From: a virus
Taxonomy: Duplodnaviria > Heunggongvirae > Uroviricota > Caudoviricetes
Virus record (IMG/VR): IMGVR_UViG_2909262264_000005
DNA: 64,000 nt
Reading direction: 5' to 3' (one strand)
The notes beneath the pieces were generated by a model, which was not told the DNA's origin, made no database searches, and saw nothing but the letters and a program-made list of their open reading frames with translations. A program made the translations under genes and the position numbers. Positions 10,461-63,292 of the stretch are shown one piece after another. Within the stretch, counting starts at the first letter, position 1, and each line of letters opens with the position of its first letter.

Positions 10461-10465
10461 GGGAT

Positions 10466-39347: not shown

Positions 39348-40040
39348 ATGACATTTTCAGAACGACTTGATTTAGCTATGCGCAACGCAAAATTTACGCA
39401 AGGTAGGCTGGCCAAAGAAGTGGGTATGGCTCAGTCCAGTGTCAATCAACTACTTAACAAAGCCAACGGTTCCAGAAAAACAGTCGAAATAGCAAAAGTT
39501 TTGGGCGTTAACCCGGAATGGCTTGCATCGGGTGTTGGCCCAATGGAAATCGTGACCTCTGCAGACTCACACCAAATACGTAACATTTCTGAAGATTGGG
39601 TTACTGATTCGTATGTCGTGGATGTTTTAGACATCAGATATAGTTGCGGACCTGGTAGTTATAACTCTGATTTTCCTGACATTGTCAGATCTATAGCGAT
39701 AGAACCAGGATACGCATCAAGAGTTTTTGGCGGCAGACCAGCATCAGCAATCAAAGCAATAAACGCCCACGGCGACAGCATGAAAGGCACAATAAACCCT
39801 GAGGACTTGGTGTTTGTTGACGTATCAGTTCGCTCATTTAATGGCGATGGTATATACGCTTTTACATACTCAGGAACATCGCACATCAAAAGGCTTCAAA
39901 AAATCAAAGACACCCTAACAGTGATCTCAGACAATCCAGCTTACAAAGATTGGGCTATCGAACAAGATGACTTCGAGCAACTTCACATTGACGGAAAAGT
40001 AATCGTAAGTTGGCCTATGACGCTACACCGTTTCGCATAA
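39348..40040 (+). CDS. CI-like repressor (HTH plus S24 LexA-like peptidase domain)
   Basis: N-terminal HTH (GRLAKEVGMAQSSVNQLLN), C-terminal GDSM serine motif and downstream lysine. Confidence 0.85.
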   Translation: MTFSERLDLAMRNAKFTQGRLAKEVGMAQSSVNQLLNKANGSRKTVEIAKVLGVNPEWLASGVGPMEIVTSADSHQIRNISEDWVTDSYVVDVLDIRYSCGPGSYNSDFPDIVRSIAIEPGYASRVFGGRPASAIKAINAHGDSMKGTINPEDLVFVDVSVRSFNGDGIYAFTYSGTSHIKRLQKIKDTLTVISDNPAYKDWAIEQDDFEQLHIDGKVIVSWPMTLHRFA

Positions 40041-40060: not shown

Positions 40061-40089
40061 CCGCCCACTCCACGAGTGGGTTTTTTTTT
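40061..40089 (+). terminator. Intrinsic terminator after cI
   Basis: cccactc-cac-gagtggg followed by ttttttttt. Confidence 0.6.
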
Positions 40090-40108
40090 GAAAAAATCGA
40101 CAAACCGA

Positions 40109-40137
40109 TTGACAACATGAATAGGTAAACCTATTAT
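40109..40137 (+). promoter_or_regulatory. Consensus-like sigma70 promoter with embedded operator palindrome
   Basis: TTGACA - 17 bp - TATTAT; 14-bp perfect inverted repeat ataggt-aa-acctat (40121-40134) overlaps spacer and -10. Confidence 0.55.
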
Positions 40138-40186
40138 CATGACATAAGTATCGAACTCACCAAAACAATTATAGAGGATGAGGAAA

Positions 40187-40597
40187 ATGTCATCGTATAT
40201 GGGGTTACCAACAAATCAACACGATGCTCTTGAGAATATTCAACTCTTAGTAGGGGCTGGAGCACTACTGTATAGCAGCAATAACCCTGAGTTAATTGAA
40301 CTTGCCAGCTCCATCCTGGCTGTAACTCAAAAATATAGCCTCACCGCGTCGCGTTTATGCAAACAAAATTTAGTTATTAATTCCCAGAATCGGATTCGCA
40401 CCCAACGCGAAGCCTGCGGCTTAACAACCGCCGAACTCGCCAGGCTGCTCGATCTCGATGAAGAAATCATCATCCAGTGGGAAAGCGGAGAGTATGAACC
40501 AACTATCAGTATGCTTATCCCACTGGCAAATGTTCTTGGTTGCGACCCGATGTGGCTGTTAACCGGTAAACCAACAGGTGGGGATACTTGCGCATGA
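40187..40597 (+). CDS. HTH-XRE protein with unknown N-terminal domain
   Basis: C-terminal HTH_XRE (LTTAELARLLDLDEEIIIQWESGEYEPTISMLIPLANVLG); start at ATG 40187 after GAGGA; stop overlaps next start (ATGA). Confidence 0.6.
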   Translation: MSSYMGLPTNQHDALENIQLLVGAGALLYSSNNPELIELASSILAVTQKYSLTASRLCKQNLVINSQNRIRTQREACGLTTAELARLLDLDEEIIIQWESGEYEPTISMLIPLANVLGCDPMWLLTGKPTGGDTCA

Positions 40598-41923: not shown

Positions 41924-42099
41924 ATATTAAGAAGAATATAATTCTTCCGTTTTTTACTAACCGTTTATATGAAAAGCAACCGTGAATTAAGCAGAGTAAA
42001 ACTGCTTTTAATCCTTGCCACAGTACTGACACTAACAGAAATCATTATTCTCTTTATTGCGCTGTCAGTCAGTTAAAAATATCGGGATGCAACAAACCA

Positions 42100-42288
42100 A
42101 TGAGATTGTATTTCAGAATAGTAATTTTACTGGCAATTATCGCATGCATTTACGGACTACTCGTCCCGTTCCTTATATCCATGAAGGATACGGTAGCAGT
42201 CATTTCCGGCTTTGCACTGGCGTTTCTGACCCCGCCCTGCATTTATGCCATTTACAAGGGTCTTTCTTTCACTAAGGGTAAAAGATGA
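42100..42288 (+). CDS. Small membrane protein (62 aa, two predicted TM helices)
   Basis: Hydrophobic segments ILLAIIACIYGLLVPFLI and ISGFALAFLTPPCIYAI; stop overlaps start of SPFH gene. Confidence 0.5.
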   Translation: MRLYFRIVILLAIIACIYGLLVPFLISMKDTVAVISGFALAFLTPPCIYAIYKGLSFTKGKR

Positions 42289-43112
42289 AAAAGGTTATTT
42301 TTGCTTTAGCCATTGTTCTTCCGACCATTGGCCTTGTCGGTTGCGATCGCGTTGAACCAGGTAATGTTGGCATCAAGGTAAATAAACTGGGCGACGACAA
42401 AGGCGTCGGTGAAGTGGTTGGCGTTGGCCGCTACTGGACCGGCTGGAATACTGAAGTTTACATCTTCCCGACCTTCAAACAAATGAAGACCTACGATGAA
42501 CCGTTCAGTTTCCAGATGAGTGACGGTACAACCATCGGCTATCACATCGGCGTGGCCTACAAAGTTGACCCATCCAAAGTTACCACGGTGTTTCAGACCT
42601 ACCGCAAAGGCGTGGATGACATTACCGACACCGACCTGCGTCAAAAGATCGCCGACGCACTCAATCGACTGGCCAGCAAAATGACCACCGACAAATTTAT
42701 CGACGGCGGGAAGTCTGAACTACTGGATGCAGCTCTTAAAGACATTCAGGAGGAAATGACACCCATCGGTATTCAGGTAATGAGCCTCTCATATGTGGGT
42801 AAGCCGGAGTACCCGTCAACCGTTATCGACAGCATTAATGCCAAAGTCACGGCGAACCAGAAAACACTGCAGCGCGAGCAGGAAGTTAAACAGCGCGAAG
42901 CGGAAGCCAACATGTTGCGCGCGGAAGCTGCCGGACAGGCTGATGCGATTCGCACAAAAGCCCAGGCCGAAGCCGATGCTATTCGTTTACGCGGTGAAGC
43001 TCTGCGCCAGAACCCCGGTGTTATGGAGCTGGAAGCCATCAATAAATGGAACGGCACACTGCCGCAATACATGACCAGCGGTGCAAATACACCATTTATC
43101 CAGGTTAAATAA
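42285..43112 (+). CDS. SPFH/band-7 domain lipoprotein
   Basis: Lipoprotein signal with lipobox LVGC; SPFH-like core; C-terminal coiled coil (QREQEVKQREAEANMLRAEAAGQADAIRTKAQAEADAIRLRGEA). Confidence 0.7.
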   Translation: MKKVIFALAIVLPTIGLVGCDRVEPGNVGIKVNKLGDDKGVGEVVGVGRYWTGWNTEVYIFPTFKQMKTYDEPFSFQMSDGTTIGYHIGVAYKVDPSKVTTVFQTYRKGVDDITDTDLRQKIADALNRLASKMTTDKFIDGGKSELLDAALKDIQEEMTPIGIQVMSLSYVGKPEYPSTVIDSINAKVTANQKTLQREQEVKQREAEANMLRAEAAGQADAIRTKAQAEADAIRLRGEALRQNPGVMELEAINKWNGTLPQYMTSGANTPFIQVK

Positions 43113-43149
43113 CTTATATGCCCGGCAGGCCGCCGGGCTAAGGGAAATG

Positions 43150-43512
43150 CAGATGAACACCCAGAATACTCAACCGCAAATAATGAACTATGACCCGAAT
43201 CTGACGTCATGCGGACGCATGGCAAAACAAACCGTTCGATTAACTTTCGGACTATGGGAATACCGCGAAACATTCGAAGTTACTGTCGGCGGCAATCTGA
43301 CCGGACTGGATGTTATCAGTTGCGCTATTGAAAGCCTGTACGAAACGCTGCCTTATGAAGAAGTCGAGGATGAGCGCGATATCATAGCCACCATTAATAT
43401 CGGCGGACTGGAATGCAAGGATGAAAACCTGTCCGGAGAGCTCTGGCTTGCCGGGATGCTTATCTCAGCAGAAATTATCAGTATTGAACCCGCTACAAAC
43501 ATACAGCTCTGA
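43150..43512 (+). CDS. Hypothetical protein (120 aa)
   Basis: AAGGGA RBS; preceded by stem-loop gcccggc-aggcc-gccgggc. Confidence 0.5.
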   Translation, partial: QMNTQNTQPQIMNYDPNLTSCGRMAKQTVRLTFGLWEYRETFEVTVGGNLTGLDVISCAIESLYETLPYEEVEDERDIIATINIGGLECKDENLSGELWLAGMLISAEIISIEPATNIQL

Positions 43513-43944: not shown

Positions 43945-44154
43945 GTGGGGCTGGATTGCGTACCTATATCAACCTACTGCCGCAACGCAGGAGAAACGGT
44001 TGATGCCGTTAACAAACGGATACAAAGAGGAATATGGAAAGAAGGGGTACATGTATTAAAAGTCGACGGAGTTAAAGAACGTTGGGTCGACTTAATGGAG
44101 ATTACAAAATGGGCAAGAAAGAACAAGGATCATTATCTCTCCCTAGAGGAGTAA
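43945..44154 (+). CDS. xis: Excisionase (Xis-like)
   Basis: 69-aa basic protein with GTG start after GAGGTG; overlaps integrase start. Confidence 0.6.
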   Translation: MGLDCVPISTYCRNAGETVDAVNKRIQRGIWKEGVHVLKVDGVKERWVDLMEITKWARKNKDHYLSLEE

Positions 44155-45281
44155 CTATTCGGCAGCATAAAACTGGTAGCACTCTGGTTATCACTTTTAC
44201 ATATAAAGGGGTTCTGTGTCGGGAGCCCCTCTCCAGAATGGAAGTAAACGCGCGCGGTGTGAAGTACGCAGAACGTCTGCTGGGAGAAATAAAAAATCAG
44301 ATTATCGATGGTACCTTCGAATATGCAAAATACTTCCCCAACTCCCAAAAGCTGGAGTTGTTCGGGGGAGTGAAAAAAAACAAAAATATAAAATCTTATC
44401 TGGATGAATACCTGATTATCTGCCAGAACCGTAACCTGTCACCATCGACAATTAGAGGTTATGAAAAATGCTTGTCGGCGCTGTCAGCATTGCATAAATT
44501 TCATGTATCAGAACTGACACCTGCTGTACTAAAAAACTGGATCGCCAGCAGAAAAACAAAACTGAAAACGATCCGCAATAATCTTTCGTTTCTGCGCAGC
44601 GCCATAGATGAAGCGGTGACCGATGGTTTGTTAACAATAAATCCTGTCACGCTAGTCAGCGCCAGCCGGTATCACGTATTGGACAACACACCAGGCAGTG
44701 GTGATTACGAGGTCGATCCCTTTACACCAGCGGAGACGGCAGCAATCTATGACGCCTGTCATTACCCGGAATGGCGAAATCTGTTTCGCTTTGCCTTTAA
44801 TACCGGACTGCGTAGCTCAGAATTGTGCGCGTTGCGCTGGACGGATATAGACTTCATCGGCAACACCGCGCATGTTCAAACTGCAAGCGTAGTCGGGGTA
44901 ATCAAAAGCACCAAAACAAAAGCCGGCACCCGCAAAGTGCAACTGAACAGCGAAGCGCTGGCGGCTCTTCAGGCACAAAAGCCCTACACGGCGCTAAAGA
45001 GCGACTTCATATTCAGCGATCCGAAAACTCGCGCTCCTTGGGCAAACGCAGATGCGATCCGAAAAAAAGCCTGGGTACCAACCCTTAAAAAAGCTGGTGT
45101 ACGCTATCGCAATCCGTACCAGACACGCCACACGTTCGCCACACGGCACATTAGCCAGGGCGTTAACCTGTTCTGGCTTGCTGGTCAGATGGGACATAAA
45201 GGACCGGAAATGCTGTTCAGACATTACGGCTCTTACCTTGCAGAATACGATGGAAAAACGGCGATTTCTGCAGCCCCGTAA
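44109..45281 (+). CDS. int: Tyrosine integrase
   Basis: C-terminal catalytic residues in ...RHTFATRHISQGVNLFWLAGQMGHKGPEMLFRHYGSY; sits beside the att core at 45414-45440. Confidence 0.9.
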   Translation: MGKKEQGSLSLPRGVTIRQHKTGSTLVITFTYKGVLCREPLSRMEVNARGVKYAERLLGEIKNQIIDGTFEYAKYFPNSQKLELFGGVKKNKNIKSYLDEYLIICQNRNLSPSTIRGYEKCLSALSALHKFHVSELTPAVLKNWIASRKTKLKTIRNNLSFLRSAIDEAVTDGLLTINPVTLVSASRYHVLDNTPGSGDYEVDPFTPAETAAIYDACHYPEWRNLFRFAFNTGLRSSELCALRWTDIDFIGNTAHVQTASVVGVIKSTKTKAGTRKVQLNSEALAALQAQKPYTALKSDFIFSDPKTRAPWANADAIRKKAWVPTLKKAGVRYRNPYQTRHTFATRHISQGVNLFWLAGQMGHKGPEMLFRHYGSYLAEYDGKTAISAAP

Positions 45282-45598: not shown

Positions 45599-45674
45599 CC
45601 CTTAAGTTCCTAGCCGCTTATCTATAACTATGGAAAAATGTTAACCCTGACTGTATGTTAACAAAGGGATGTAT

Positions 45675-46883
45675 ATGTCGGTTTTTCATAACTGGCTGCT
45701 TGATATCGCAAGCGGGAATTACTTTATCTACATCAAACGCCTTTCTGCAAACGACACAGGCGCAACAGGTGGCCATCAGGTCGGACTTTATATCCCCTCA
45801 AATATCGTTGAAAAGCTTTTTCCATCTATCAATCATACTCGCGAACTGAACCCTTCAGTCTTCCTTACTGCGCATGTATCATCCCATGATTGCCCTGATA
45901 CCCAAGCACGCGCAATTTATTACAACAACCGTTATTTTGGTAAGACCCGAAACGAAAAAAGAATTACGCGCTGGGGGAGAGGAAGTCCATTACAGAACCC
46001 TGAAAATACAGGAGCCCTCACAATTCTTGCTTTCAGGTTAAACGAACAGAACACTGACTGTTCCGAGGTAGATATATGGGTCTGCGTCAATCCCGATGAA
46101 GAGGATATCATCGAGTCTGCTATTGGCGAAATCATACCTGGAACCCTAATTTCCGGCCCTGCCGGACAAATTTTGGGCGGATTGTCTCTTCAGCAAACTC
46201 CAGTAAATCATAAATATGTTATTCCTGAAGACTGGAAGAAGCGTTTTCCTTCTGGAAACGAAATTATTCAATATGCTGCTGGCCATTATGCTAAAAACTC
46301 CAAGGATCCAGATGAGCAACTGATTGACCGTCGGCGTGTCGAGTATGATATTTTTCTACTCGTCGAGGAATTACATGTTATTGATATTATTAAGAAAGGA
46401 TTCGATTCTGTAGATGAGTTTATTGCATTAGCCAACTCTGTCAGTAATCGACGTAAATCAAGGGCAGGCAAATCACTTGAACTTCACCTAGAGAAGCTTT
46501 TTATCGAGCACGGACTACGGCATTTCTCCACTCAGGCAGTTACTGAAGGTAATAAAAAACCAGATTTCCTGTTTCCTTCAGCAGAGGCATATCATAACGT
46601 TGAATTTCCTGTAGAAAACTTACGTATGCTGGCAGTAAAGACCACCTGCAAAGATCGCTGGCGTCAGATACTGAATGAAGCAGATAAAATCCATCAGGTA
46701 CATTTATTTACACTGCAAGAAGGTGTTTCTTCAGCACAATACCGAGAAATGAAAGATGCGGGTGTCAGACTCGTTGTACCATCAACTTTACATAAAAAAT
46801 ACCCAGAAGCAGTTAGAGAAGAATTAATAACGCTCGGAGCATTCATTACTGAGCTGATAGAGCTTTACGCTGAACTATCATAG
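45675..46883 (+). CDS. Type IIE restriction endonuclease, EcoRII-like (predicted CCWGG specificity)
   Basis: 402 aa; N-terminus MSVFHNWLL...YIKRLSANDTGATGGHQVGLYIP recalled as EcoRII effector domain; C-terminal PD-(D/E)xK motif (KPDFLF ... VENLRMLAVKTTCK). Confidence 0.8.
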   Translation: MSVFHNWLLDIASGNYFIYIKRLSANDTGATGGHQVGLYIPSNIVEKLFPSINHTRELNPSVFLTAHVSSHDCPDTQARAIYYNNRYFGKTRNEKRITRWGRGSPLQNPENTGALTILAFRLNEQNTDCSEVDIWVCVNPDEEDIIESAIGEIIPGTLISGPAGQILGGLSLQQTPVNHKYVIPEDWKKRFPSGNEIIQYAAGHYAKNSKDPDEQLIDRRRVEYDIFLLVEELHVIDIIKKGFDSVDEFIALANSVSNRRKSRAGKSLELHLEKLFIEHGLRHFSTQAVTEGNKKPDFLFPSAEAYHNVEFPVENLRMLAVKTTCKDRWRQILNEADKIHQVHLFTLQEGVSSAQYREMKDAGVRLVVPSTLHKKYPEAVREELITLGAFITELIELYAELS

Positions 46884-46917: not shown

Positions 46918-48351
46918 TCAAGGCTGCCCAGTCTTACCAGCATCAGCAGAAACAGCTTTGAGGATATAGGGTTCCAGAAGTCTGGCAACAGCTTCAAATA
47001 CTGGCACCACAACTGAGTTACCGAACTGCCGATATGACTGAGTATCTGAAACCGGAATACGGAATGGTTTCCCTCCAGGTTTTTCAAATCCCATAAGGCG
47101 TGCGCACTCTCGGGGAGTCAGCCTGCGTGGTCGACGAGCCTGATTACTCTCATTCATAAAGTCAGCCTCTCCCGTTGCCATATCCCAACCACGATCAATA
47201 AGAATTTCTGATCCGTCTTTGTGATATCTGGCAGAAAGTGTGCGTGCAATGCTTTCCTTATTCTCAGGATTGACCAACCCAAAGCCAAAACCATTCCCCT
47301 TGGCTGCATGCTTTTTGGCGTAGTTATAAAGGTACTCCCATAGTTTTGGCGTAAGTATATATTTACTGTCGACTACAGGCTCCAGCAATTCACCAAATGA
47401 TGGGCGGTGTTCCGGATAAAAACGACTGATATCACGCAAGGTAAACCCCTTGTGAATATTCAGATCTCGTCTAAATCCGACCAGAACAATACGTTCACGA
47501 TGCTGAGGCAAAAAATGCTTCCCATCGATAATCTTTGGATCGTTTTTTCCCATTTCTGCAGCATCGGCAACTTCGTAGCCCAGCTCGTCAAGGGTCTCCA
47601 TAATGACTTTGAAAGTTTTACCCTTATCATGGCTCTTCAGATTTTTGACATTTTCCAGCACAAAAATTGCCGGTTTTTTTGCTCGTATAATACGTGCCAC
47701 GTCAAAAAAAAGTGTTCCTTGTGCTTCACATTCAAAACCATGCGCACGACCAAGTGAGTTTTTCTTACTAACACCAGCAAGGCTAAATGGCTGGCACGGG
47801 AACCCCGCAAGAAGCACATCATGATCCGGCACATGCTCATCAATATATGCATAAGCATCCGTTTCCAATACATCGGTTTTATCACTCAGCGTGACTTCCC
47901 GAATATCGAGATTGAATTTATGCACCTGTTCATCGTTAAACCAGTTGGCCTTGTATGTACGCACAGCATCTTTATTCCATTCACTGGTAAAAACACACTG
48001 GCCTCCAATGGCCTCAAAACCTTTCCGTATCCCTCCAATTCCAGCAAATAAGTCAATGAAGCGGAAAGCATATTCCGGATGGTTTGCAGGTGGTTCTGGT
48101 AGCATCTTACGCAGAAGAGACTCTTCTACTGAAGTCAACGATTTTGGTAAACACTTGCCATTAATCCAGCGGTTAATGGTTTCACGGCTCCACTCATTTT
48201 TTCCGACTTTTCTCAGTAATTCAGCCACATACTTCTGATCATAGATTTCCAGCACTTTCTCGATAAGCTTTTTATCATTTTCCTGTCGCAGCTTTTCTTC
48301 CGCCTCGGCTTCCTTCAGCAGATGCTGTGCCAACACTTCAAATTCAGACAT
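46918..48351 (-). CDS. DNA cytosine-5 methyltransferase, Dcm / M.EcoRII-like
   Basis: 477 aa from ATG 48351 (GGAGG RBS); motif [14 protein letters not shown] catalytic motif ([11 protein letters not shown]), ENV (FVLENVKNL); recalled as highly similar to E. coli Dcm. Confidence 0.9.
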
Positions 48352-48712
48352 AATTCCTCCAAGGGGTCTAATGGGTGAAACTTTATCACTCATTCAACCC
48401 AGAAGGAAATGTTTTATCTGGATATTTAAACAGTGACTACAACGTAATCTAGCACTGGTGATGCTTTGTTAGGCATAGAGAATCATTCTATATACGACTA
48501 ATGACAGAAAAACAGCAGACAAGTAGTTTGTTCATAAATTAACGCATACTATGTGTCTACGGTTTTCGAGACCGGTCCAATCATCAAACGAAACATAAAA
48601 TTAGCTCACATTATGAGGAAAAGTATCTTTTTTGTACTATGTAAATTCAAAGGCTTAGCCTCATTTCTCCGATGGTTTTCTCAACACTACTGGTTGTGAG
48701 CCCTTGCAATGA

Positions 48713-49600: not shown

Positions 49601-50185
49601 TTACACGGTGTCTGGTTCTTCTGGCCACTCAATATCCGGTGCAGTTGATGTATCAACACGGTTCAGCAACACCCGATACTTTTTCCAGGCTTCCAGCAAT
49701 GAGGTTTCTTCCTCCGTTGCGATTTCCAGATCTACAGCATCCTGAAGTGGCGCAATATGCTCACTGGCTACCTGCATCAGGCTGTTTTTTGTTTCTTCCG
49801 CCTCTCGGATCCGGAACAGTTTTTCTGCTTCTGCATCTTTCACCCAGGCTGTGCCGTTCCACTTCTGAAACTCCCCTTCCGGCGATAACCAGGTAACATT
49901 TTCCGGTAACGGACCGAGTTCAGAAATAAATAACGCGTCCCCTGACGCTACGTCATAAACCGTTTTACCCCGATGGTCTTCATCGAGATGCCACGATGCC
50001 TTATCACTGTTGAAAACAGCCACAAAGCCAGCAGGAATATCTGGTGGTGCAATATCGGTACTGTTTGCTGGCAGACCTGTATGAGGCGGAATATATGCGT
50101 CACCTTCACCAATAAATTCATTAGTTCCGGCCAGCAGATTATAAATTTTTATGGTCCGTGGTTGTTCACTCATTCTGAATGCCAT
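49601..50185 (-). CDS. Tail fibre assembly protein (Tfa)
   Basis: ~96% identical to the prophage A copy. Confidence 0.8.
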
Positions 50186-53100
50186 TATGCAAGCCTCACA
50201 ATATAGTTAAATGCGATGTTTTTGACGGTGTTTTCCGCGTTACCAGCAGCGTTAACGGTGATGGTGTGTCCATGTGAACCAATCGCAACGGAGTGCGTAT
50301 GAGCACCAATACCGACAGTATGCGCGTGTGCACCTGCAGATGCTGCTGTGCCGGACAGTGAATGGCTATGATTACCATCTGTACTGGTATTCGCTAACCA
50401 CCCCGTAGACATACCTACTGAGCCTTGTACACCCCAGGTATTTTGACCTGAGCTTGTATAACCATATTGATAAGTATCTTTAAAAACACTGGGGTTAAAT
50501 CGACGGCCATCTCTATGGCTGTGATTACCAGCTGCATTCGTGCTGCCACTTAAACTATGGGTATGCGCACCAGTGTTATTCGTGGATTTAGTGCCGTAAT
50601 CAAACGACGATGTGGTTTTCGTCCCCAAATCCGTACTGGATGCGCTGGCGCTGTGGGTATGCGATTTAATGCCATCCTGTTCCTGAGACAATACGGCACG
50701 ACCACTGGCGGGCTTGCCCTTAATCGTCCAGCCACGCAAATCAGGGATCACGCCTGACGGATAAGCGGCAGCAAGTTTCGGGTAGGCAGATTTGTCAAAA
50801 GTCTGCCCCTGCATCAGGGCATAACCAGACGGAACGGTATCTGATGGCCACGGGATTGGTGCGCCGACTGGGTAGCTTTCTGGTGGAAGATTTTTCGAGG
50901 TATAAACTTCTGCCCAGTCTTCCTCAAAACCATAGCCATCTCTTGAAGAACGGTAGAACAGACCACCATTTCTGTAATGCGCCTTCATCTGCAGGGTCCG
51001 GCAACTTCCGACTCCGGTATAGAAGTTAACCAGAATATAGCTGTCGCCAGAGCGGGTGACATTGTAAGCGCCTGATTCGGCATTCCAGGGAACGCCACCA
51101 TCCGCATCGGCATATGTATCCGTTGCCCTTCTGGCAAAAGCAGCCACATGCGCGGCGGTTAAAGTAATATCTTTGGAACCATCAAACTCAACACCAGAAA
51201 CCAGTCTTGGCGTTTGCAGCTTTGTTGCTGTTAATGCATTACCGTTCAGACTTGCGGACAGTTTGGTTCCAATAACCAGTTCGCCGGTTGCGTTATCAAT
51301 AGCAAACGGTCTTAATGTATTCCAGCCACCATAAACATCACCTTGATTGGTAAGCAGCAGGTAAGTTTTAGCGCCATCATTACGCCATAATGCCCCATAC
51401 TCCCCACCTATCATTCGAATCTGATTACCACCACGCGCTACAATTTCGTCTGTGGCAAAAAGTTTTTTGCACGACAAGTTATCGTTAACGATTAACGAAT
51501 GAGACTCATAAAAACCACGCCCACTCTTAAAATCAAGGATAACGTCCGCCGCGATACATTCAGTCGCCGGATTTGTTGCCCCAAACTTATAGGTCGTATC
51601 ATTAACAACGAGATCAGCACCAGGTGCGGATATTGACAGGCCATCTTCGATAAACGCAAAAACAGGGAAAGCAGCGCCATCAACATAGAACACAGAGCGC
51701 AAATCATCGCCCTTATTACTCATCATTATTGAGTGGATGGCTCGTTCATTGTTTTGATATTGCCAGAACATTCCATAAGCATAACGCCCCCTGTCAGTCC
51801 AGCCACCAGGCATAACAAATCCGTTAAACTCGCAGTTATTCATCGGATCGCCTGCGGTTCGCGGTGCCGTGGTGATAATGACCCTTGATGCCAGTTCGCT
51901 TACTGAGCCAGCAGAACGCATAACAACAACAGGGTAATATTTTCCAGATGTTGCACCTGCAGGAGCGTTAACCCGCACATAACGCATACCACGCTTATCA
52001 GCAAAGTCTGTTTTACTGACCGCGTTAATGTTGTTCAGGAAGCGTCCCTTATCGGGTATATCAGCGCCGTTCTGGTCTTTCTGCAGACGTTTCTCTGCAT
52101 TGTCATAGGCTGATTTTACTGCCTTTGGCGTTGCCGCCAGCGTTTCAGACGTACTGTTGGTCGCACTGCTGAGCTGTACTATCCCCTTTTTCGTCGTACT
52201 TGCATCCTCAAGCGCCACGGCGGATGCAATATCCTCTGCCCGTTTAGCTGCTGTCTCGGCGCGCGTTGCCGCGGATTCCGCCGTACTTTTGCTCTGTGCT
52301 GCCGCCGTCGCACTGCCAGCTGCCTCTGTCGCCTTCGTGGATGCTGTCGTGGCGCTGCCCTTCGCTGCTGACGCCTGTCTGGTCGCCTCATCTTTTGAAG
52401 CAGACGCCGATGATGCCGATGACGCCGCCGAACTGGCGGACGATGCGGCAGCCGTTTTTGAGGATTCTGCGCTGGTTTCCGACGCTTTCGCGTTCGTCTC
52501 GGATGTCTTCGCTGCGGAAGCAGACCTCGCTGCTGCACTGGCCTGTTCAGTGGCTTCGCCAGCCTTCGTTGTGGCTGTTGAAGCGGACGATGCGGCGCTT
52601 TCTGCCGATTTTCCGGCGGCGCTAGCACTGGCTGAGGCCTGCCCGGCACTTGTTGACGCGGCACTGGCAGATGATGCAGCCGCTGTTTTTGAGCCTGCCG
52701 CAGCTGAGGCACTCTGTCCCGCTGCCGTTTCAGAAGACTTAGCGTTCGTCTCGGACGTTTTTGCCGCCTTCGCAGAATTTGCTGCCGCCGTTGCCGAGGA
52801 AGCGGCACTACTGGCGCTTGATGATGCGTTCGTTTCTGATGATTTCGCTGCCTCTTTTGAGGCCGCCGCATCCCGGGCTGAGGTGGCAGCTTCTGACGCC
52901 TTCGTGGTCGCGGCGGATGCAGAAGTGGCTGCAGATTTTTGTGACGCTGCCGCATTCGTTTCTGACGTTTTCGCGGCACTGGCACTGGTAGCTGCCGCGC
53001 TTTTTGAGGACTCTGCAGCAGCAGCACTTTTCGATGCTTCAGTGGCCTTTGTTGATGCCGTTCCTGCGCTGGAAGACGCCTCCTGAGCCGAAGTCGCGGC

Positions 53101-53589
53101 CTGTCCGGCTGACGTGCTGGCTGCACGCGCTGAGCCTGCAGCATCAGTCGCATGGGTTGCCGCCTCACGGGCAGATGTGCCGGCATCGCCGGCTGACTTC
53201 TTCGCGGCTGCCGTGTTCTGTGCCACCGCGGACGCGTTACGCGCCACCTCTTCCACCATCAGTTCAAAACGGCGCAGAGCCTCCGGACGGGCATCATCCT
53301 CCGTCATGGCACCGAGAAAATCATTCAGCGTACCGGGTCGGGAATCTTCATACACGGTGATGGTCCCGGCATGTGACGGCGGGAATCCTTCCACCAACAG
53401 AATAACGCTGTACTGACCGTACTCAACGTCCATGCTGTAACGCCCGGCTTCATCCGGATTTTCTGAGGCCAGCGTGTTCACCACCACCGTGGTGCTGTTA
53501 CGTTTTGCTTTCAGCTGGATTGTGCAGTTCTGTACCGGTTTTCCTGTGCCGTCTTTCAGTACACCTGAAATCTTTACTGCCATATTCAC
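50185..53589 (-). CDS. Side tail fibre protein
   Basis: 1134 aa; shares N-terminal Ala-rich rod and C-terminal His-rich region with the prophage A fibre but has a different central segment. Confidence 0.85.
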
Positions 53590-53647
53590 CCCACAAAAAA
53601 GCCCGCCTGAACCGGCGGGCTGTCATAACACTGTGTTACCTGGCTAA

Positions 53648-54247
53648 TCAGAATTTATAACCGACACCCACGATGAAACCGTCAGTGCGCCAGTCGCCAC
53701 TGCCGGAGCCTTCATAAGCAATATCAATGGCCACGGATTCGGTCGGGTTAAACTGCACGCCAGCTCCCCACGCCAGAGACGTGTTGCTGTGGCGACCGTC
53801 ATCACTTCCGGTCAGCACGTCGTGCGTTTTCCCCTTGTTGTCAGTTACGCGGAGATAATCCCCGGAGAAAGTCGACACACGGCTGTAAGCCACGCCTGCC
53901 ATCGCATACGCGCTGAACCATTCATTCACGCGTACAGACGGCCCCGCCATCACGCTGAACCAGCGGTTACGCACGGAATCTTCATGCCAGCGGGTATCGC
54001 TGTAATGGGTCAGCTGGCGATTCTTGTCTCCTGCATAGCTGAACGACGTCACCATCCCCAGTGTGTCCGTAAACTCATAACGGTATTTCACGTTAATCCC
54101 GTTCAGATCATCACTGCCGGGAACGTTCGTCCGGGCATGAAGATACCCCGCGCTCAGCGTGGACTGATGTTCAGACGCCCATGCAGGCGCACCGGATACG
54201 GCCAGACAAATGGCTGCGGACAAAATGGCGGCATAAAGTTTACGCAT
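53648..54247 (-). CDS. lom: Lom-like outer-membrane protein
   Basis: 199-aa paralogue of the prophage A Lom. Confidence 0.8.
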   Translation of the reverse strand: MRKLYAAILSAAICLAVSGAPAWASEHQSTLSAGYLHARTNVPGSDDLNGINVKYRYEFTDTLGMVTSFSYAGDKNRQLTHYSDTRWHEDSVRNRWFSVMAGPSVRVNEWFSAYAMAGVAYSRVSTFSGDYLRVTDNKGKTHDVLTGSDDGRHSNTSLAWGAGVQFNPTESVAIDIAYEGSGSGDWRTDGFIVGVGYKF

Positions 54248-54313
54248 AATTACCTCTCGCTTTTCTGCAATAAAAAAGGCGTCATTTCTGACGCCCGTTC
54301 TGGGTTATAAAAT

Positions 54314-57300
54314 TCAGCTGATACTGATACCTGCTGTGGATTTTTTCATCACCACAACCAGCAGATCGCTGATACTGGTTGTTGGTGTCCAGTTATTCGC
54401 TCCTGATGAAGATACGGTGAATGTCAGTGTCAGCGTCCCCTGTCCGGCAGGCATATCTATAACTGAGGAAAATACGCCCTGAGCATCCGTCGTGGACTGA
54501 TTAAAAATCTCCTGACCATTGCGGGTCACTCTTAACCGGCAGGTTGAATACCAGTATGACTGTTGGTTATTACTGTTGAAATTCTCATGCTTACCACCGC
54601 GGAATAACACTGGCGGTATCATGACCTGCCGGTCAAATTTCTGATCATCACTGATTCTTACCGTGATGGTGCCACTGGCATAACTGTTCGTGCGGGGGAA
54701 AGACTTGCTGACCGTTTTGACAATATCGCCTTCAATCTGATTGGCTGACAGTTTCCCCTTAATCTGACAGTTCTCATTAATCGTGACATTGTTGAGCGTC
54801 CCGGAGTTCGCATTCACACTGCCACTGATATCCGCATTTTTAGCAGTCAGCTTTCCGTCCGGTGTCAGGGAAAATGCCGGAGGATTACCGCCGCTGGTAA
54901 TGGTGGGAGCCGTCAGATATTTCAGGAACACTTCATTCATGAATATCTGATCGCCCTGACCAACAAACATCGGCTTTGTGTTGCCATTCGCAGGATTAAT
55001 CATCGCAATCCTGTCTGCCGCCAGCAGCACCTGACTCTGCATGCCGTCGGGGGTGTTCTCAATACCGGCACCGATACCCGCAATATAAAGGCGTCCGTCC
55101 TGCATCTGCTGCAGCTTCACTGCCCACATGCTGTTCAGGTTATTATTTGTATCAACCTGAACCTTCTGTATCTGCTGGATCGCTGCACTCTGGTCTTCCA
55201 GTTTCTTATTGACGGTCTGTGTTATTTCATTGCTGACATCCGTTATGGACGTCCTGATTTCAGTCAGGTCAGGCGCAAGCTGACCGTTATCAATCTGCGT
55301 CCACAGCTCCTGAGCCAGATGGGTTTTCCCTATCTCGCCTTTGAAAAAATCCAGATAGCCTGATGCATCATCACTCGGCTGACCGACAGCCTCCACGAAT
55401 GCCGATTTGCCAACGGTGTTCACACTGCGAACGTAAAAATAATAATCATGGCCCGGTTTGATATTGATACTGGCGGCTATCCAGTACAGCGCCGTACCAA
55501 GATAACGCGCGCTGGTTTCAACCTGCCTGATATCGGCAATCCGCGTTTCCGAGAACCAGAACTCAAACTGTACCGTCGGATCATAAACGGCAAGATGCGG
55601 TATGGCGGTTATCTGAAAATAGCCCGGCGTCAGCTCAATCCGCGACGGTGCTGCCGGTGCGGCAATCCGGAACGATACCGACGCCGGATCGCCCTGCTGT
55701 CCCCACGCATTTACCGCCCGGACCGTCAGCGTGTAACGCCCCAGCGCCAGTTGCCTGAAGCGGTATGTGGTTTCCGTCGTCCGGGCCGTGCTGACCAGCC
55801 GCTCACTGCCGTCATCCGCTGTTACGGTCAGACGGAGCAGGAAGCTCACGCCCTTCACCACCTTCGGCGTGTCCCAGCGCGCCAGCACCTGGTATTCCCC
55901 GCTGTCTGCGGTGACTTCTGCGGTCAGGTGCTGCACTGCTGGCGGCGTGACACCATTCACCGTGCCGCTCTGGTCGCCGTCAAAGTGCGCCCCGTTATCC
56001 ACGATGGCCTCTTTCTCCGGCACATGCTGCACAGCGGTGATGGCATACGTGCCGTCGTCATTCTCACGGATACTCACGCAGCGGAACAGGCGCTGGCGCA
56101 GCGTCGGCAGCTTCAGCCCCCACACGCTGTACTCGGCAACGCCGTCAGGAACACGGCTCACTTTCACCTTCACGCCGTCGGTGACGGACTGGACCTCCAC
56201 GCTGACCGGATTGCCACTTCCGTCAACCAGGCTTATCAGCGTGGTACCGGAGGATGGCAGCGTGATTTCACGGTCGAGCGTCAGCGTCCGGGTCTGGCTG
56301 TTCACCGCCAGCACGCGCCCGCCGGTGCTGATACCGGCATAGTCATCATCACAGATTTCAATGACATCGCCCGGTACATGGCGAAGCCCTTCGGCACCCA
56401 CGCTGAAGTCCACGGTCTGCGTCTCCAGCAGCTCCGTTTTAATCAGCCACAGCCCGGCTCGGTGTGCCTGCCCCCGGCTGGTACAACCAAAGGCATCCAT
56501 CTTCGTGACATTACGACCGTAACGGGCAATGGCCTGCGTGTCCTCCACAAGCTCTGTCGCCGTCTCCCAGCCGTTGTTCGGGTCAATCCAGTTCACCTCA
56601 ACGGCATTATGGCGGTCTTTCAGGGCGCTGAAGCTGTAGCGGAACGGCGCGCCATCATCCGGCATCACCACATTACTGCGGTTATAGGTCCACACCTTAT
56701 CCGACGGTCGGTCCTGCACGAACGTCAGCGTCTGCCCGTTCCATACCGGCATACAGCGCATCGCCGAGCAGAAATCACTGAGCACATCCCACGCCTTGCG
56801 CTGTGTGGTCAGCCAGGCATTACAGGTGATGCGCGGCTCCGTGCCGCCAAAGCCGTCCGGCACCGACTGGTCGCAGTACTGGCCGATGACATACAGCGCC
56901 CATTTATCCACATCCGCCGCACCAAGACGTTTCCCCATGCCGTAGCGCGGATGGGTCAGCATATCCCACAGACACCAGGCCATGTTGTTGCTGTATGCCG
57001 GTTTAAACGTTCCGTCCCAGATACCGCTGTATTGCCGCGTCTGCGGGTTATAATTCGACGGCACCTGCAGAATACGCCCGCGCAGATGATAATTACGGCT
57101 CACCTGCTGGCTGCCGAACTGCTCCGAGTCCACCTGCACGCCGACCAGTGCCGTGTTCGGGTAGCACTGTTTCACATCGATAATTTCGGTGTATGACGAC
57201 CAGAGCGTTTTGTTCTGCAGCTGGTCTGTGGTGCTGTCCGGCGTCATCCTGCGCATCCGGATACTGAACGGGCGCGGCGGCAGGTTATCCACCACCACCG

Positions 57301-57796
57301 AGGCCAGATACTGTGAAGTGGTTTTACCCTTAATGGTGATGTCTTTTTCCGTCACCCAGCCACCGTTACGCTGAATCTGAACCAGCAGGCGGACTTCCGA
57401 CGGATTCCGGTCACCCTTTGAGGTGGTTTCCACCAGTGCCTGCACACCGAAGGTAAAGCGCAGACGGTCGATGTTTGCAGACGTGATGGTCCGGGTGATC
57501 GGCGTGTCGTATTTCACTTCCGTACCCAGCACCGTCTCGGAACCGGAGGATTCAAATCCCTCCGGCGGTGTCTGCTCCTGCTCACCTGCCCGGAACACCA
57601 CCGTGACACCGGAGATGTTGGTATTCCCCTCACTGTCCAGCACCGGTGTACTGTTCAGCAGCACGCTTTTTAATCCATCCACCGGACCTTCAATCGGCCC
57701 TTCGCTGATGGCATCGATCACACTCAGCAACTGCGTGGATTTCAGGTTATCCTTCGCTTCGCGCGGGGTATGCCCCTTACTGCTGCCTTTACCCAT
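54314..57796 (-). CDS. Host specificity protein J
   Basis: 1160 aa; first ~830 residues near-identical to prophage A J, C-terminal region divergent. Confidence 0.9.
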
Positions 57797-57856
57797 TCGT
57801 CATGCTCCATAAACGACAAAACCGCCCGGAGGCGGTTTCACATAAAACATTTTGCA

Positions 57857-58504
57857 TCAGCGACCAATCACCACAACCTGACCACCGTCCCCTTCGTCTG
57901 CCGTGCTGATCTCCTGAGAAACCACCCGCGACCCCACACGCATTTCACCGTACAGAACAGGCAAAACATTGCCCTGAGCAACCATGTTATCCAGTGAGGA
58001 GAAATAGGTGTTCTGTTTGCCGTTATCTGTACTGGCTGCCGTGGGCGTCCTGGCTTTCGGTGCCAGCATCTGGGCCACACCACCCAGGATCATACTGGCC
58101 CCTGCCGCATACATGCCCGATACAGCCGCAGCACCCAGCCAGCCCACAGGGTTCCACCATGCCACCGCAATCAGCGCCGCCCCCAGCACCACCTGAAACA
58201 CACCGCCACTTTTAGCTCCCGCCATACGCGGCACGATGTGAATCACGGCACCATTTTCCAGCGGCTCATTAAGACGGGCAGATAATTCATTTTCTCCCGC
58301 ATCACGCCCGGCAATGCGCACCTGATACCAGCCCTCATTCAGTTTCTGGCGAAACGACGGAAGCTGTGTGGCCAGCGCCCGGATGGCTTCAGCCCCCGTT
58401 TTCACACGAAGGTCGATGCGGCGGCCAAATCGTTGTAAATCCCCGTAAAGGCAGATGCGTGCCATGCCCGGTGACGCCAGAGGGAGTGTGTGCGTCGCTG
58501 CCAT
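57857..58504 (-). CDS. Tail assembly protein I
   Basis: Paralogue of prophage A gpI-like protein. Confidence 0.8.
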   Translation of the reverse strand: MAATHTLPLASPGMARICLYGDLQRFGRRIDLRVKTGAEAIRALATQLPSFRQKLNEGWYQVRIAGRDAGENELSARLNEPLENGAVIHIVPRMAGAKSGGVFQVVLGAALIAVAWWNPVGWLGAAAVSGMYAAGASMILGGVAQMLAPKARTPTAASTDNGKQNTYFSSLDNMVAQGNVLPVLYGEMRVGSRVVSQEISTADEGDGGQVVVIGR

Positions 58505-59145
58505 TTGTCGGTATACCTCTCTCGTTTGCTCAGTTGTTCAGGAATATGGTGCAGCAGCTCGCCATCACCACAGTAAATGGCGGCATGATTCGGCACCGAT
58601 GAACCAAAACAGCACAGCAGCACATCGCCCGGCTGCGCCTCTGTCAGTGCGACACGGTAAAAACCAGTCGCCTCCATATTGTCAAGATAGAGATTCTGGC
58701 CGTTACGCCACCAGTCATCTCCGCGATGAAAATCCGGCATCTCAATTCCCGCCAGATGGTATGCATCCCGGAACAGCGTGTAACAGTCCGTCACCCCGTG
58801 CTCAAAGCGCCGCCCGGTAAGATGTGGCACACAGCGGAACTTGTGAATCGCCCCGCGGCAGACCAGCCACCACGGCAAATCACTCTGCACCTGCAGCCGC
58901 CGATCGGCCTCACTCAGCCAGGGCAGACCACCGGGATGACTGTGGACCAGCGCCACAATCTCACCCTGCATTTCTGCCCGCAGCCAGTCCTCCGGAGCCA
59001 TCCGGAAATACGCCTCCGGCTCACCGGAGATATTCACGCAGGGAAAATATCTTTCTCCCTCCGGCATTCTCACCACGAAGCCGCACGACTCCGCTGGCGC
59101 ACATCGCCGGGCGTGCGCCAGAATCGCTGATTCTGTCTCTGTCAT
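58402..59145 (-). CDS. Tail assembly protein K
   Basis: Paralogue of prophage A K. Confidence 0.8.
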   Translation of the reverse strand: MTETESAILAHARRCAPAESCGFVVRMPEGERYFPCVNISGEPEAYFRMAPEDWLRAEMQGEIVALVHSHPGGLPWLSEADRRLQVQSDLPWWLVCRGAIHKFRCVPHLTGRRFEHGVTDCYTLFRDAYHLAGIEMPDFHRGDDWWRNGQNLYLDNMEATGFYRVALTEAQPGDVLLCCFGSSVPNHAAIYCGDGELLHHIPEQLSKRERYTDKWQRRTHSLWRHRAWHASAFTGIYNDLAAASTFV

Positions 59146-59150
59146 GGGAT

Positions 59151-59852
59151 TTACTGCGAAAGTTTGTTAATGGAAAGGTAACCGCCAAAGTTGCCGACGT
59201 TATTGCGAAACTTACAGCCGCTAAGGCATTTGCTGCATTTATCCTTCGTGATATCGGACGTCGGCTGGTCATATTCATCCGCGACTGCCGGACCGTGATA
59301 ACCGCACTCATCACCGCGATAGGTCCAGGTGCAGGTGTTGGCCAGCATGATACGCCCCGGAAAAACAGCACCGTCCGTTTCCGTCGGCGTGGACAGTACA
59401 AAAGAAGCACTGACCGCACTCAGTTCACTGCACTGCTCGATGCGCCAGCTGCTGATCACCTCCTGCTCCTGGTCGGCATCACTGTTTCCGTTGACGAAGT
59501 TCACCGCATCCAGAAAACGGGCGTAAACCTTACGCCGGACCACCGTTCCGCCGACCAGACTCTGCAGATCTTCCGCCATACCGGTGACCATACCGTGCAG
59601 GTTAGAAACCGTCAGTGTCGGACGGGCAGCACTGCCCTTGCCGTTCAGTTCAAATCCTGTCCCCTGAATGGGGTATGCCTGATACTGCCGCCCCTGCCAG
59701 GTGACCGGCTCACCTTTTTCGTTCTGCTCATTACATAAAAAATAACGTTCACCACCGACCTCTGTCAGATCGATTTCCCAGAGCACCACCTGGGCTGACT
59801 GAGTGAGGCGTGTCGTCTCATGATGTGTTTCCTGTGGAATATCCTGCATCAT
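59151..59852 (-). CDS. Minor tail protein L
   Basis: Paralogue of prophage A L. Confidence 0.8.
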   Translation of the reverse strand: MMQDIPQETHHETTRLTQSAQVVLWEIDLTEVGGERYFLCNEQNEKGEPVTWQGRQYQAYPIQGTGFELNGKGSAARPTLTVSNLHGMVTGMAEDLQSLVGGTVVRRKVYARFLDAVNFVNGNSDADQEQEVISSWRIEQCSELSAVSASFVLSTPTETDGAVFPGRIMLANTCTWTYRGDECGYHGPAVADEYDQPTSDITKDKCSKCLSGCKFRNNVGNFGGYLSINKLSQ

Positions 59853-59858
59853 GGCCTC

Positions 59859-60188
59859 CTATGCCACGACCTGTTCAAAATCTGCCGTTATGGTTACCCA
59901 CAGCGCCCCCACGCTTGCCGACCATTTACGACAAACCACCCTAATCGGCTTCCAGTCATAAGGTGGCGTCCACTGAAATGCGCGGACGCCACCGTGCCGT
60001 TCCAGAAAGGCTTTTAAAGATGGGTGTTCACATTTACGAACACGTATCGTCACGCTGTAAGTCGACAACTGGTTATTCAGTCCCGCCGCACGACGCTGTT
60101 CATAACCATCGCCCAGCTTCACTGTCACCACTTTCGGTTCTGATACCACATTCATATCCGGGCGCACTTTCCAGTGAAACGTCTCCAT
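59859..60188 (-). CDS. Minor tail protein M
   Basis: METFHWKVRPDMNVVSEPKVVTVKLGDGYEQRRAAGLN...; resembles lambda gpM. Confidence 0.75.
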   Translation of the reverse strand: METFHWKVRPDMNVVSEPKVVTVKLGDGYEQRRAAGLNNQLSTYSVTIRVRKCEHPSLKAFLERHGGVRAFQWTPPYDWKPIRVVCRKWSASVGALWVTITADFEQVVA

Positions 60189-63100: not shown

Positions 63101-63292
63101 GGCGGCCTGAGTCTGACGCTCCATAAAACGCTGCATACGGGCAGAAGACCGTTCTGCATCGCTGGCTGCACCATTCAGAAGGTTTTTGATACGGGGAATT
63201 TCATTTTTAAACTCTGCCGCATCAATCCCCAAATCAATGACCAGGTTGGCTATCTGGTCCATAACGCACACCTCCGGAAATACCTTCTCCAA
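60188..63292 (-). CDS. Tail tape measure protein H
   Basis: 1034 aa, coiled-coil-rich. Confidence 0.85.
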   Translation of the reverse strand: MEKVFPEVCVMDQIANLVIDLGIDAAEFKNEIPRIKNLLNGAASDAERSSARMQRFMERQTQAARQTTQAASSAATAASVHAQTVEKNAQAHERMAREVEKTRQRMEALSQKMRDEQAQAMALAEAQDKAAAAFYRQIDSVKQASAGLQELQRIQQQIRQARHSGGIGQQDYLALISEVTAKTRVLTQAEEEATRQKVAFIRQLKEQATRQNLSSSELLRAKAAQLGVSSAAEVYIRKMEQAGKATHSLGLKSAAARQEIGVLIGELARGNLGALRGSGITLANRAGWIDTLMSPKGMMLGGVIGGIAAAVYGLGKAWYDGQKEGEEFNRQLSLTGHYAGVTAGQLWTLSRAISGNGITQHAAAGALAQVVGSGAFRGNDIGMVARAAAQMERSVGQSVSDTINQFKRLKDDPVNAAKALDNELHFLTATQLEQIRVLGDQGRSSDAARIAMSALAEETGRRTADIDNNLNALGSTLKYLSDLWSRFWDAAMNIGREDSLDEQIAALQEKVSRAKRLPWTASSSQVEYDQQRLNDLQEKKRQKDLQDAKEQAERNYQEQQKRRNAENAALNRMNETEAARHQREIARINAMQYADQAVRDAAIQRENERYEKALASGKKKTRETRNDEATRLLMQYSQQQAQVEGQIAAARQSAGIATEKMTEAHKQLLALQQRISDLDGKKLTADEKSVLARKDELIQALTLLDVKQQELQKQTALNELKKKTIQLTSQLAEEERAQRQQHDLDIATVGMGDQQRQRYQVQLSLRQKYQQQLEQLRRDSEQKGTYNTDDYRKAEQALTESLNRQLNENRRYWQQLEIAQGNWKNGAMRAFQNFTADADNAAGTAEQMLTAAFNSAGNALATFCTTGKLNFKSFTASLLSDLAKIMAQMSMMQAVKGIGSAFGWGSAATASVTPNADGGVYQSADLSRYSGTVVNRPTFFAFAKGAGVMGEAGPEAILPLRRGADGKLGVVADIGGSGMAMFAPQYNIEINNDGTNGQIGPAALKVVYDLGKKAAADFMQQQARDGGRLSGAYR

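Follow-up and report, generated by a model that had tools for sequence, protein, structure and literature searches.

A 64,000-nucleotide (nt) stretch of phage DNA (IMG/VR record IMGVR_UViG_2909262264_000005, Caudoviricetes; hereafter the window) holds a complete lambdoid prophage which carries, on its plus strand, two overlapping genes encoding a 62-amino-acid (aa) two-transmembrane hairpin protein (42100..42288) and a 275-aa SPFH/Band-7 lipoprotein (42285..43112). The pair is an evolutionarily old bacterial module that has been picked up repeatedly by many phages, and as an SPFH operon it is distinguished by its lipid anchor and by a minimal partner other than NfeD. The best explanation, to which about even weight is given, is that the two proteins form a periplasm-facing SPFH cage at the inner membrane, with the hairpin as a subunit, and that the cage serves a general membrane function. 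A general inner-membrane function is favored because the module occupies fixed chromosomal positions in two unrelated genera, is strongly conserved, and is placed with early or replication genes in virulent phages. The module is not read as a dedicated anti-phage weapon and bears no specific sign of defense.

The 275-aa protein, whose open reading frame (ORF) begins with ATG, is composed of a signal peptide with a lipobox, an SPFH domain, a 65-residue helix, and a C-terminal KWNGxLP..PF motif. Residues 22-208 match the Pfam family Band_7 (PF01145; E 1.8e-30, 106.8 bits vs a cutoff of 23.6), and the protein matches phrog_200, annotated as "lipoprotein" (E 9e-114). The N-terminus consists of MKKVIFALAIVLPTIGLVGC followed by DR, such that the lipobox L-V-G-C occupies residues 17-20 and Cys20 (codon 42342-42344) is followed by Asp at +2 (42345-42347); the lipobox and this Asp are encoded at 42333..42347 on the plus strand. 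The original prediction, made by a model from the letters of the window, had proposed an SPFH lipoprotein with the lipobox LVGC, and both the family match and the position of the lipobox bear this out. Asp at +2 is the canonical enterobacterial signal for retention in the inner membrane (Lol avoidance), and the stretch GCDRVEPG that contains it is present in all 80 of the enteric IMG/VR loci. Among 150 diverse representatives of the family, a lipobox was found in at least 99 and a plain N-terminal transmembrane helix in about 10. Since the latter exchange the lipobox for a transmembrane anchor, residence in the inner membrane is supported as the common state.

The fold of the lipoprotein places it with the cage-forming members of the SPFH family. 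An AlphaFold2 (AF2) model, with a mean predicted local distance difference test (pLDDT) score of 76.8, has an alpha/beta SPFH domain and then a single 65-residue helix (residues 178-242), which corresponds to the C-terminal coiled coil that had been predicted. Comparison of the model with the PDB using Foldseek gave erlin1/2, HflK, prohibitin-2, and HflC as the top matches (E about 1e-12), with stomatin, flotillin, major vault protein, and QmcA lower down; overall, E values ranged from 1e-12 to 1e-7 over 240-300 columns. The top group consists of cage-forming SPFH proteins that face the endoplasmic reticulum lumen, the intermembrane space, or the periplasm. This group thus faces away from the cytoplasm, in agreement with the orientation predicted for the phage protein. 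A profile of 102 diverse members, when compared with solved structures, matched prohibitin-1 almost full length (E 1.2e-10), then HflK, QmcA, and HflC. The C-terminal motif KW(N/D)GxLP...PF is nearly invariant and is the family's own, with W255, G257, and P260 invariant. By analogy with its SPFH relatives, the 275-aa protein may assemble into a ring or dome. A Pfam scan found no protease domain in the protein, and the identity implied by the label "serine protease" on phiP27 L05 was rejected for lack of such a domain; the label appears to be inherited from an older COG designation, "membrane protease subunit, stomatin/prohibitin homologue".

The 62-aa ORF, which also starts with ATG, is a real gene and not a chance ORF since its full length matches phrog_1130 ("membrane protein"; E 1.5e-23) and since it has two hydrophobic segments and differs from 22 variant alleles by 186 synonymous vs 128 nonsynonymous codon differences. 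The two segments and the full-length family match agree with the two-helix small membrane protein of the original prediction. For the SPFH gene, comparison with 22 distinct alleles gave 1060 synonymous vs 437 nonsynonymous codon differences; the synonymous excess in both genes indicates that both are under purifying selection. The N- and C-termini of the hairpin protein are basic, and its loop includes the stretch ..VPFLISMKDTVAV... In an alignment of 29 homologues (including the N-termini of fused proteins, described below), helix 1 is followed by a turn of the form G-x-x-x-P-x-[LM]-[IV]-S-[AS]-x-[SD]-[TD]-x-x-V-x-x-G and then by helix 2, with the motif P-x-[LM]-[IV]-S-x-x-[DS]-[TS] conserved. 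The predicted topology is N-in/C-in, with a short conserved loop (5-6 residues) in the periplasm. PHROGs places phrog_1130 in the category "moron". No match to NfeD (PF01957) was found in the hairpin in Pfam at E<=0.01, or in three hairpins and four fusion proteins at E<=1, and a protein of only 62 aa has no room for the NfeD OB-fold domain. The hairpin likewise matched no holin family in Pfam at E<=1. T4 Imm was considered as a relative on account of a superficial LPxxI...SKST likeness and was rejected (hhalign probability 0.8%, no Pfam match at E<=1).

The two genes are joined by an ATGA stop/start overlap at 42285..42288 on the plus strand, an arrangement indicative of translational coupling, and the ORF boundaries and overlap given in the original prediction were confirmed. 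The Shine-Dalgarno sequence of the SPFH gene (AAGGG, 42274-42278) lies inside the hairpin ORF, 6 nt before the second ATG. The identical 4-nt overlap is found in phages P88, KpCHEMY26, and phiE125, in Pseudomonas phage 5400, and in 60 of the 80 IMG/VR loci. A scripted search recovered the hairpin ORF in 70 of these 80 loci; one of the ten missed loci was inspected and proved to have the hairpin with a 20-nt overlap, and the other nine were not individually inspected.

In some phages the two proteins are naturally fused, which supports their joint action, natural fusions being classical evidence that two proteins act together. A HMMER scan of 1.84 billion cluster representatives returned 965 relatives at E<=1e-10, of which 227 reached E<=1e-30. 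Among the 150 best representatives, about 20, from metagenomic phages, are single polypeptides of 320-390 aa that start with the hairpin and continue through a linker and a Cys-containing lipoprotein-type signal peptide into the SPFH protein. Because cluster representatives tend to be the longest members of their clusters and two of them (P0184 and P0241) are clear frameshift artifacts, three of the fusions were checked on DNA. All three were confirmed: P0255 on four contigs, drawn from independent samples in Logan and ENA (one contig being phage-like and 145 kb long), P0185 on a 30-kb contig that also bears RtcB, a D5-type primase, and an SNF2 helicase, and P0237 in both a JGI sample and a Logan sample. 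In the AF2 model of a further fusion, P0177 (pLDDT 82.9), three helices at the N-terminus lead into the SPFH domain, after which come a 65-residue helix and short strands at the C-terminus. The signal peptide of a lipoprotein must run from the inside to the outside of the membrane, and thus the termini of the hairpin that precedes it in the fusions should be cytoplasmic and its conserved loop periplasmic. In P0184 (metagenomic, 344 aa), the hairpin, with its usual motif, stands after the SPFH protein, whose C-terminus is replaced by residues that look out of frame; this polypeptide is probably the product of a frameshift, and it hints that the gene order is reversed in some genomes.

The module shares features with several known systems. 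HflK/HflC-FtsH, PHB1/2, and erlin1/2 have in common with the 275-aa protein the SPFH fold and long wall helix, an N-terminal anchor, and a predicted orientation away from the cytoplasm. However, HflK and HflC are a pair of paralogous subunits with transmembrane helices, whereas the phage module has a single SPFH gene, a lipid anchor, and its own KWNGxLP..PF motif. Identity with HflK/HflC was rejected: the equivalog scores are far under the cutoffs (TIGR01932 hflC, 24.4 bits vs 134.4; TIGR01933 hflK, 23.4 vs 159.4), and the one SPFH gene has no SPFH-domain neighbor. NfeD-SPFH operons include ybbJ-qmcA and yqiJ-yqiK of Escherichia coli (YbbJ-QmcA and YqiJ-YqiK), PH1510-PH1511 of Pyrococcus, and NfeD2-FloT of Bacillus. 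The phage module resembles these operons in having a small membrane-protein gene directly upstream, in its translational coupling, and in a partnership kept over long evolutionary distances, but its partner is a two-helix hairpin only, with neither an NfeD/OB-fold domain nor a ClpP-like protease domain. In addition, QmcA and YqiK face the cytoplasm whereas the 275-aa protein is predicted to be exported. The likeness to NfeD/SPFH pairs that was originally proposed therefore holds for gene order and coupling, but not for the partner itself, in which no NfeD domain is found even at a Pfam E<=1.

Homologues with the same two families in the same arrangement are annotated as phiP27 L05, P88 gp11/gp12, PVP-SE1 gp115/gp117, and phiE125 gp44/gp43. 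The closest relatives of the window pair are those of Shiga toxin (Stx)-converting phages, with 95% DNA identity to phiP27 over the whole pair and 93% to Stx2a/2d-converting phages. By tblastn, SPFH relatives were found in 727 phage records, and sequence identity across genera of Enterobacterales is high (84-87%). An iterated profile search for homologues gave mostly proteins that are at least 69% identical to the query; the diversity came from the cluster representatives. Temperate carriers include the P2-like phage P88 (gp11 and gp12 with a 4-nt overlap, in an early operon), the Burkholderia phage phiE125 (gp44 and gp43, 4-nt overlap), and Pseudomonas phage 5400, where the pair lies downstream of CI, again with a 4-nt overlap. 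In P1 variants, the pair is in the dmt-ban variable region and the hairpin gene overlaps the SPFH start by 20 nt. No promoter of the pair's own was predicted in the P1-like and P88 loci. The plp/upl genes of P1 were rejected as reference homologues: Plp of reference P1 is an unrelated 125-aa lipoprotein, the dmt-ban region of reference P1 holds the unrelated plp, upl, and tciABC, and among P1 phages the SPFH pair is confined to variants.

Strictly virulent carriers (N4-like, PVP-SE1-like, and LUZ24-like phages) have the module amid early or DNA-metabolism genes. In the N4-like phage KpCHEMY26, gp28 and gp29 (4-nt overlap) lie between the RNA polymerase II and dUTPase genes, and in PVP-SE1, gp115 and gp117 lie among ligase and exonuclease genes. 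In PaCe (LUZ24-like) and phiEa21-4 (FelixO1-like), the hairpin gene does not adjoin the SPFH gene but lies two or three genes before it. SSU5-like phage-plasmids have the pair beside polymerase, gp32, and RecA genes. One such phage-plasmid of E. coli (locus L012) has a terminator (7709-7729), a 10/12 promoter (7739-7767), the pair, and a second terminator (8850-8867), and this unit sits between a RecA-like gene and a DUF1281_C (PF18406) gene. Within E. coli, the module was found in 715 of 5426 complete genomes (about 13%), always on prophages or phage-plasmids; 420 placements are chromosomal and 390 are on plasmids of P1-like and SSU5-like size. A Vi01-like SPFH lipoprotein encoded beside a "superinfection exclusion" gene in the Salmonella phage PhiSH19 (L102, 2641-3958) was rejected as a homologue since it belongs to a different SPFH subfamily, which lacks the KWxGxLP motif, and has no hairpin partner. 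Its "superinfection exclusion" neighbor is a soluble acidic 106-aa protein without membrane helices.

The module is not confined to mobile elements: some bacteria have it as a resident locus of the chromosome. Genomes were scanned at one per species with a 5-sequence alignment (the 102-sequence profile and a 9-sequence alignment were too variable), and relatives were found in 127 species. These include Enterobacterales, about 25 Dyella and other Rhodanobacteraceae, Sutterella, Cupriavidus, Sphingomonas, Leptospira, and Bacteroidota. The hairpin ORF was present upstream in at least 53 of the 80 retained loci by a strict pattern. The flanks of the Dyella locus are common to about 20 species (tblastx coverage 0.75-0.98), with the module placed between a gene for a BlaR1-type M56 peptidase and hemerythrin/ribonucleotide reductase genes, and the SPFH start overlaps the hairpin stop. 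In Dyella jiangningensis (L137, 848-3423) and at other Dyella loci, the module is transcribed divergently from a 141-aa ORF and the gene for the BlaR1-type M56 membrane metallopeptidase. Since membrane proteases are frequent partners of SPFH proteins, the M56 peptidase neighborhood of Dyella could be a functional lead. In Leptospira, the module adjoins sdhCAB and its upstream flank is common to four species.

These features are consistent with the following mechanism. The 275-aa protein would be exported, lipidated at Cys20, and held at the inner membrane by Asp +2, with its SPFH domain on the periplasmic face. The 65-residue helix and the conserved C-terminus would drive assembly of a closed ring or dome; to our knowledge, the ring or dome is closed in every solved SPFH complex. 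Owing to the ATGA overlap, the 62-aa hairpin would be synthesized in step with the scaffold, and it would act as the membrane-embedded partner of the scaffold, taking the place of the transmembrane helices of HflK/C or of NfeD in other SPFH operons. Together they would enclose or organize a patch of the inner membrane. A phage could use such a module to condition the host inner membrane during its development, either by protecting membrane integrity or by sequestering a conserved inner-membrane client; this use seems the most likely one because the phage copies are mostly placed with early genes. The leading candidate for the client would be the FtsH protease, since proteases of this type are regulated by the analogous HflK/C and prohibitin complexes and since the lambda proteins CII, CIII, and Xis are substrates of FtsH. 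A role in general membrane function or proteostasis is put at roughly an even chance. Within it, FtsH specifically is a doubtful choice of client, and a role other than membrane or proteostasis functions, exclusion, or lysis timing is likewise rated as rather unlikely.

Several points weigh against a periplasm-facing cage of this kind. Lipidation, retention in the inner membrane, and oligomerization are predictions from sequence rules and from the properties of relatives, and Arg at +3 may weaken the retention signal of Asp +2. A possibly related prophage SPFH protein of Pasteurella multocida has been found in outer-membrane vesicles (PMC9872710). Contact between hairpin and scaffold is suggested by gene linkage and by the fusions, and the fraction of fusions is overestimated since some of the long representatives (P0184 and P0241) are frameshift artifacts. 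Binding of FtsH would be a matter of pure analogy because the HflK/HflC equivalog scores are so far below the cutoffs. Finally, the self-contained promoter-genes-terminator unit of L012 is a textbook moron, laid out as is usual for genes that a prophage expresses, and also fits lysogenic conversion or defense.

The unit in SSU5-like phage-plasmids is one of several observations that would suit a role in superinfection exclusion or abortive infection, where a cage on the periplasmic face blocks the entry of phage DNA by masking or sequestering an entry factor of the inner membrane, or triggers membrane failure upon infection. Parallels are lambda RexAB, P22 SieA, HK97 gp15, and T4 Imm/Sp. Both proteins of the module are predicted to be located in the envelope, PHROGs lists the hairpin family as "moron", and the module is accessory in E. 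coli, where every copy is on a prophage or phage-plasmid. It also occupies variable regions, namely the dmt-ban region of P1-like phages and the cI-int interval of the window. Its presence in virulent phages is compatible with exclusion, since early expression of exclusion genes is known from virulent phages too, for example imm and sp of T4. The genes lambda rexAB/sieB, P22 sieA, HK97 gp15, and T4 imm/sp resemble the pair in that they encode small phage envelope proteins and in their placement, either in the repressor-int interval as in this prophage or by early expression in virulent phages. However, they have no sequence or profile similarity to the pair, which is not cotranscribed with cI, is more conserved and more widespread, and is chromosomal in some genera. 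In PADLOC-DB 2.0, neither protein matched any model at E<=0.1, a search in which the adjacent type II restriction enzyme was detected as a positive control, and the hairpin is unrelated to T4 Imm as described above. The module is strongly conserved with little diversification across phages of Alpha-, Beta-, and Gammaproteobacteria, Bacteroidota, and spirochaetes, and we know of no exclusion proteins with such conservation and low diversification. A chromosomal locus with conserved neighbors in about 20 Dyella species, or beside sdhCAB in Leptospira, would be unusual for defense genes, and the P2-like and P1-like copies are in repressor-controlled early operons. Exclusion or abortive infection is therefore considered unlikely. 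A more specific version is likewise unlikely: an undescribed, phage-deployed inner-membrane compartment in which an SPFH dome walls off the membrane against competitor DNA or cages a pinholin-like pore that is released upon attack. If true, this would provide the first function for hundreds of phage SPFH genes and the first SPFH-based immune mechanism, with the wall amounting to a generic form of superinfection exclusion and the pore to a Rex-like abortive infection built on an SPFH scaffold.

A caged pore could instead serve as a lysis clock, with the hairpin acting like a class II holin or pinholin and the SPFH dome tuning the timing of lysis or the membrane potential. The size of the hairpin, its N-in/C-in topology, and its basic C-terminus fit such a role. 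SPFH cages do enclose membrane proteins, as HflK/C encloses FtsH, and a distant SPFH protein, MbpS, is encoded inside the lysis cluster of Staphylococcus Kayvirus (PMC7150955). This explanation is nevertheless very unlikely: in every Gram-negative phage examined the module is outside the lysis cassette, among early or replication genes, the hairpin has no Pfam holin match, and no lysis genes are near the chromosomal copies of Dyella and Leptospira. Lysogenic conversion directed toward an animal host, with the lipoprotein released in vesicles as a TLR2 agonist or virulence factor, is extremely improbable. Stx-converting phages carry the nearest relatives of the window pair, and a phenotype has been reported for PM0222, a possibly related HflK/C-like prophage protein of P. 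multocida: the protein is present in lysogen cells and outer-membrane vesicles, it induces cytokines via TLR1/2, and its deletion attenuates virulence in mice (PMC9872710). However, any bacterial lipoprotein activates TLR2, and a role specific to animal hosts fails to explain the distribution of the module because its carriers include virulent phages of plant, soil, and aquatic bacteria as well as free-living Dyella.

SPFH lipoproteins have been noted in phage genome papers for more than 20 years with no function assigned. No functional study of the SPFH-hairpin module was found in the searchable literature, which offers genome descriptions and speculation, and this agrees with the statement of the original prediction that the pair has no characterized role in phage defense. 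A 2026 paper states that the reason for phage SPFH lipoproteins "remains unclear" and offers adsorption or DNA entry as a guess (PMC13239085), and a genome paper suggested promotion of lysogeny through HflC (PMC10269572). For Kayvirus MbpS, the authors speculated on a membrane-organizing role and help with the secretion of a lytic enzyme (PMC7150955). The family itself is already known, being catalogued as phrog_200 and as "SPFH domain-containing protein" in RefSeq. Compared with the literature searched, the obligatory hairpin partner, the natural fusions, and the chromosomal copies with conserved neighbors are apparently new. The module is a minimal system, easily cloned from E. coli prophages, for probing what a periplasm-facing SPFH cage does, and it allows membrane protection, control of FtsH, and phage exclusion to be tested directly.

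In the window, the pair lies between a cI-like S24 repressor gene (39348-40040, plus strand, opposite a cro-like gene) and a tyrosine integrase gene (44082-45281, plus strand, identified by family match), on the same strand as both, as had been predicted. The minus-strand genes of the prophage encode a tail fiber, J protein, tape measure, major head protein, large terminase, and DnaB-like helicase. An intrinsic terminator is located right after the cI-like gene (40063..40090, plus strand), consisting of GCCCACTCCACGAGTGGGT (stem 40063-40081) followed by T9. It is followed by a near-consensus sigma-70 promoter (40109..40137, plus strand; TTGACA-17-TATTAT, 11/12), at which the operon of the pair probably begins. 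The spacer of this promoter carries a perfect 7-bp palindrome, AATAGGT-aa-ACCTATT, that occurs once in the window; its regulator may be a helix-turn-helix (HTH) protein encoded just downstream (40178-40597). Past the promoter, the plus strand encodes, in order, the HTH protein, members of phrog_5451 and phrog_1515, the pair, DUF5406 and DUF4222 proteins, a small excisionase-like ORF, and the integrase. Between the promoter and the pair, one weak promoter match (9/12, at 40753) and no plus-strand terminator were predicted. The terminator, the separate promoter, and the four ORFs between cI and the pair indicate that the pair belongs to an early-left-type operon running toward int and is not transcribed with cI. 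The rexAB/sieB-like position ascribed to the pair is thus correct as to location, but not as to cotranscription with cI. The layout of cI, terminator, PL-like promoter, and genes running to int is shared with the early-left operon of lambda. No repeat that could serve as a shared operator was found when the promoter at 40109 was compared with the region between cI and cro.

Immediately upstream of the pair is a 176-nt gap in which no promoter was predicted. This gap contains a possible 35-aa ORF with one hydrophobic helix, MKSNRELSRVKLLLILATVLTLTEIIILFIALSVS (41969..42076, plus strand). Of 80 related loci, 21 retain the ORF intact, and these are all close relatives. Neither PHROGs nor Pfam gave a match, the ORF lacks an obvious Shine-Dalgarno sequence, and it is a doubtful member of the module. 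Just past the SPFH stop codon is a GC-rich stem-loop without a U-tract (43113..43142, plus strand; RNA fold -17.1 kcal/mol, z = -2.2), possibly an RNA-stabilizing or weak termination element. The DUF5406 ORF is listed at 43081-43512, from a GTG at 43081 that is within the SPFH gene. Its true start is probably the ATG at 43147 or 43153, just past the GC-rich stem-loop, since the PHROG match begins at residue 25 and a Shine-Dalgarno sequence (AAGGGA) precedes the ATG.

Right past the integrase gene is a gene for a type II restriction enzyme (45669-46883, plus strand; PADLOC REase_II, E 4e-234), which lies between two prophages. A 491-aa ORF (46918-48393, minus strand) is convergent with it and, judged by eye from its FPCQPFS and ENV motifs, looks like a cytosine-5 DNA methyltransferase. 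Beyond this restriction-modification pair is a second set of lambdoid tail genes (49601-63292), with a tail fiber gene at 50185-53589 and a J-like gene at 54314-57796. It parallels the tail genes of the first prophage (1578-14725), which include those for the tail fiber (2162-4996), J (5722-9117), and tape measure (11498-14725), and the window therefore contains two adjacent lambdoid prophages.

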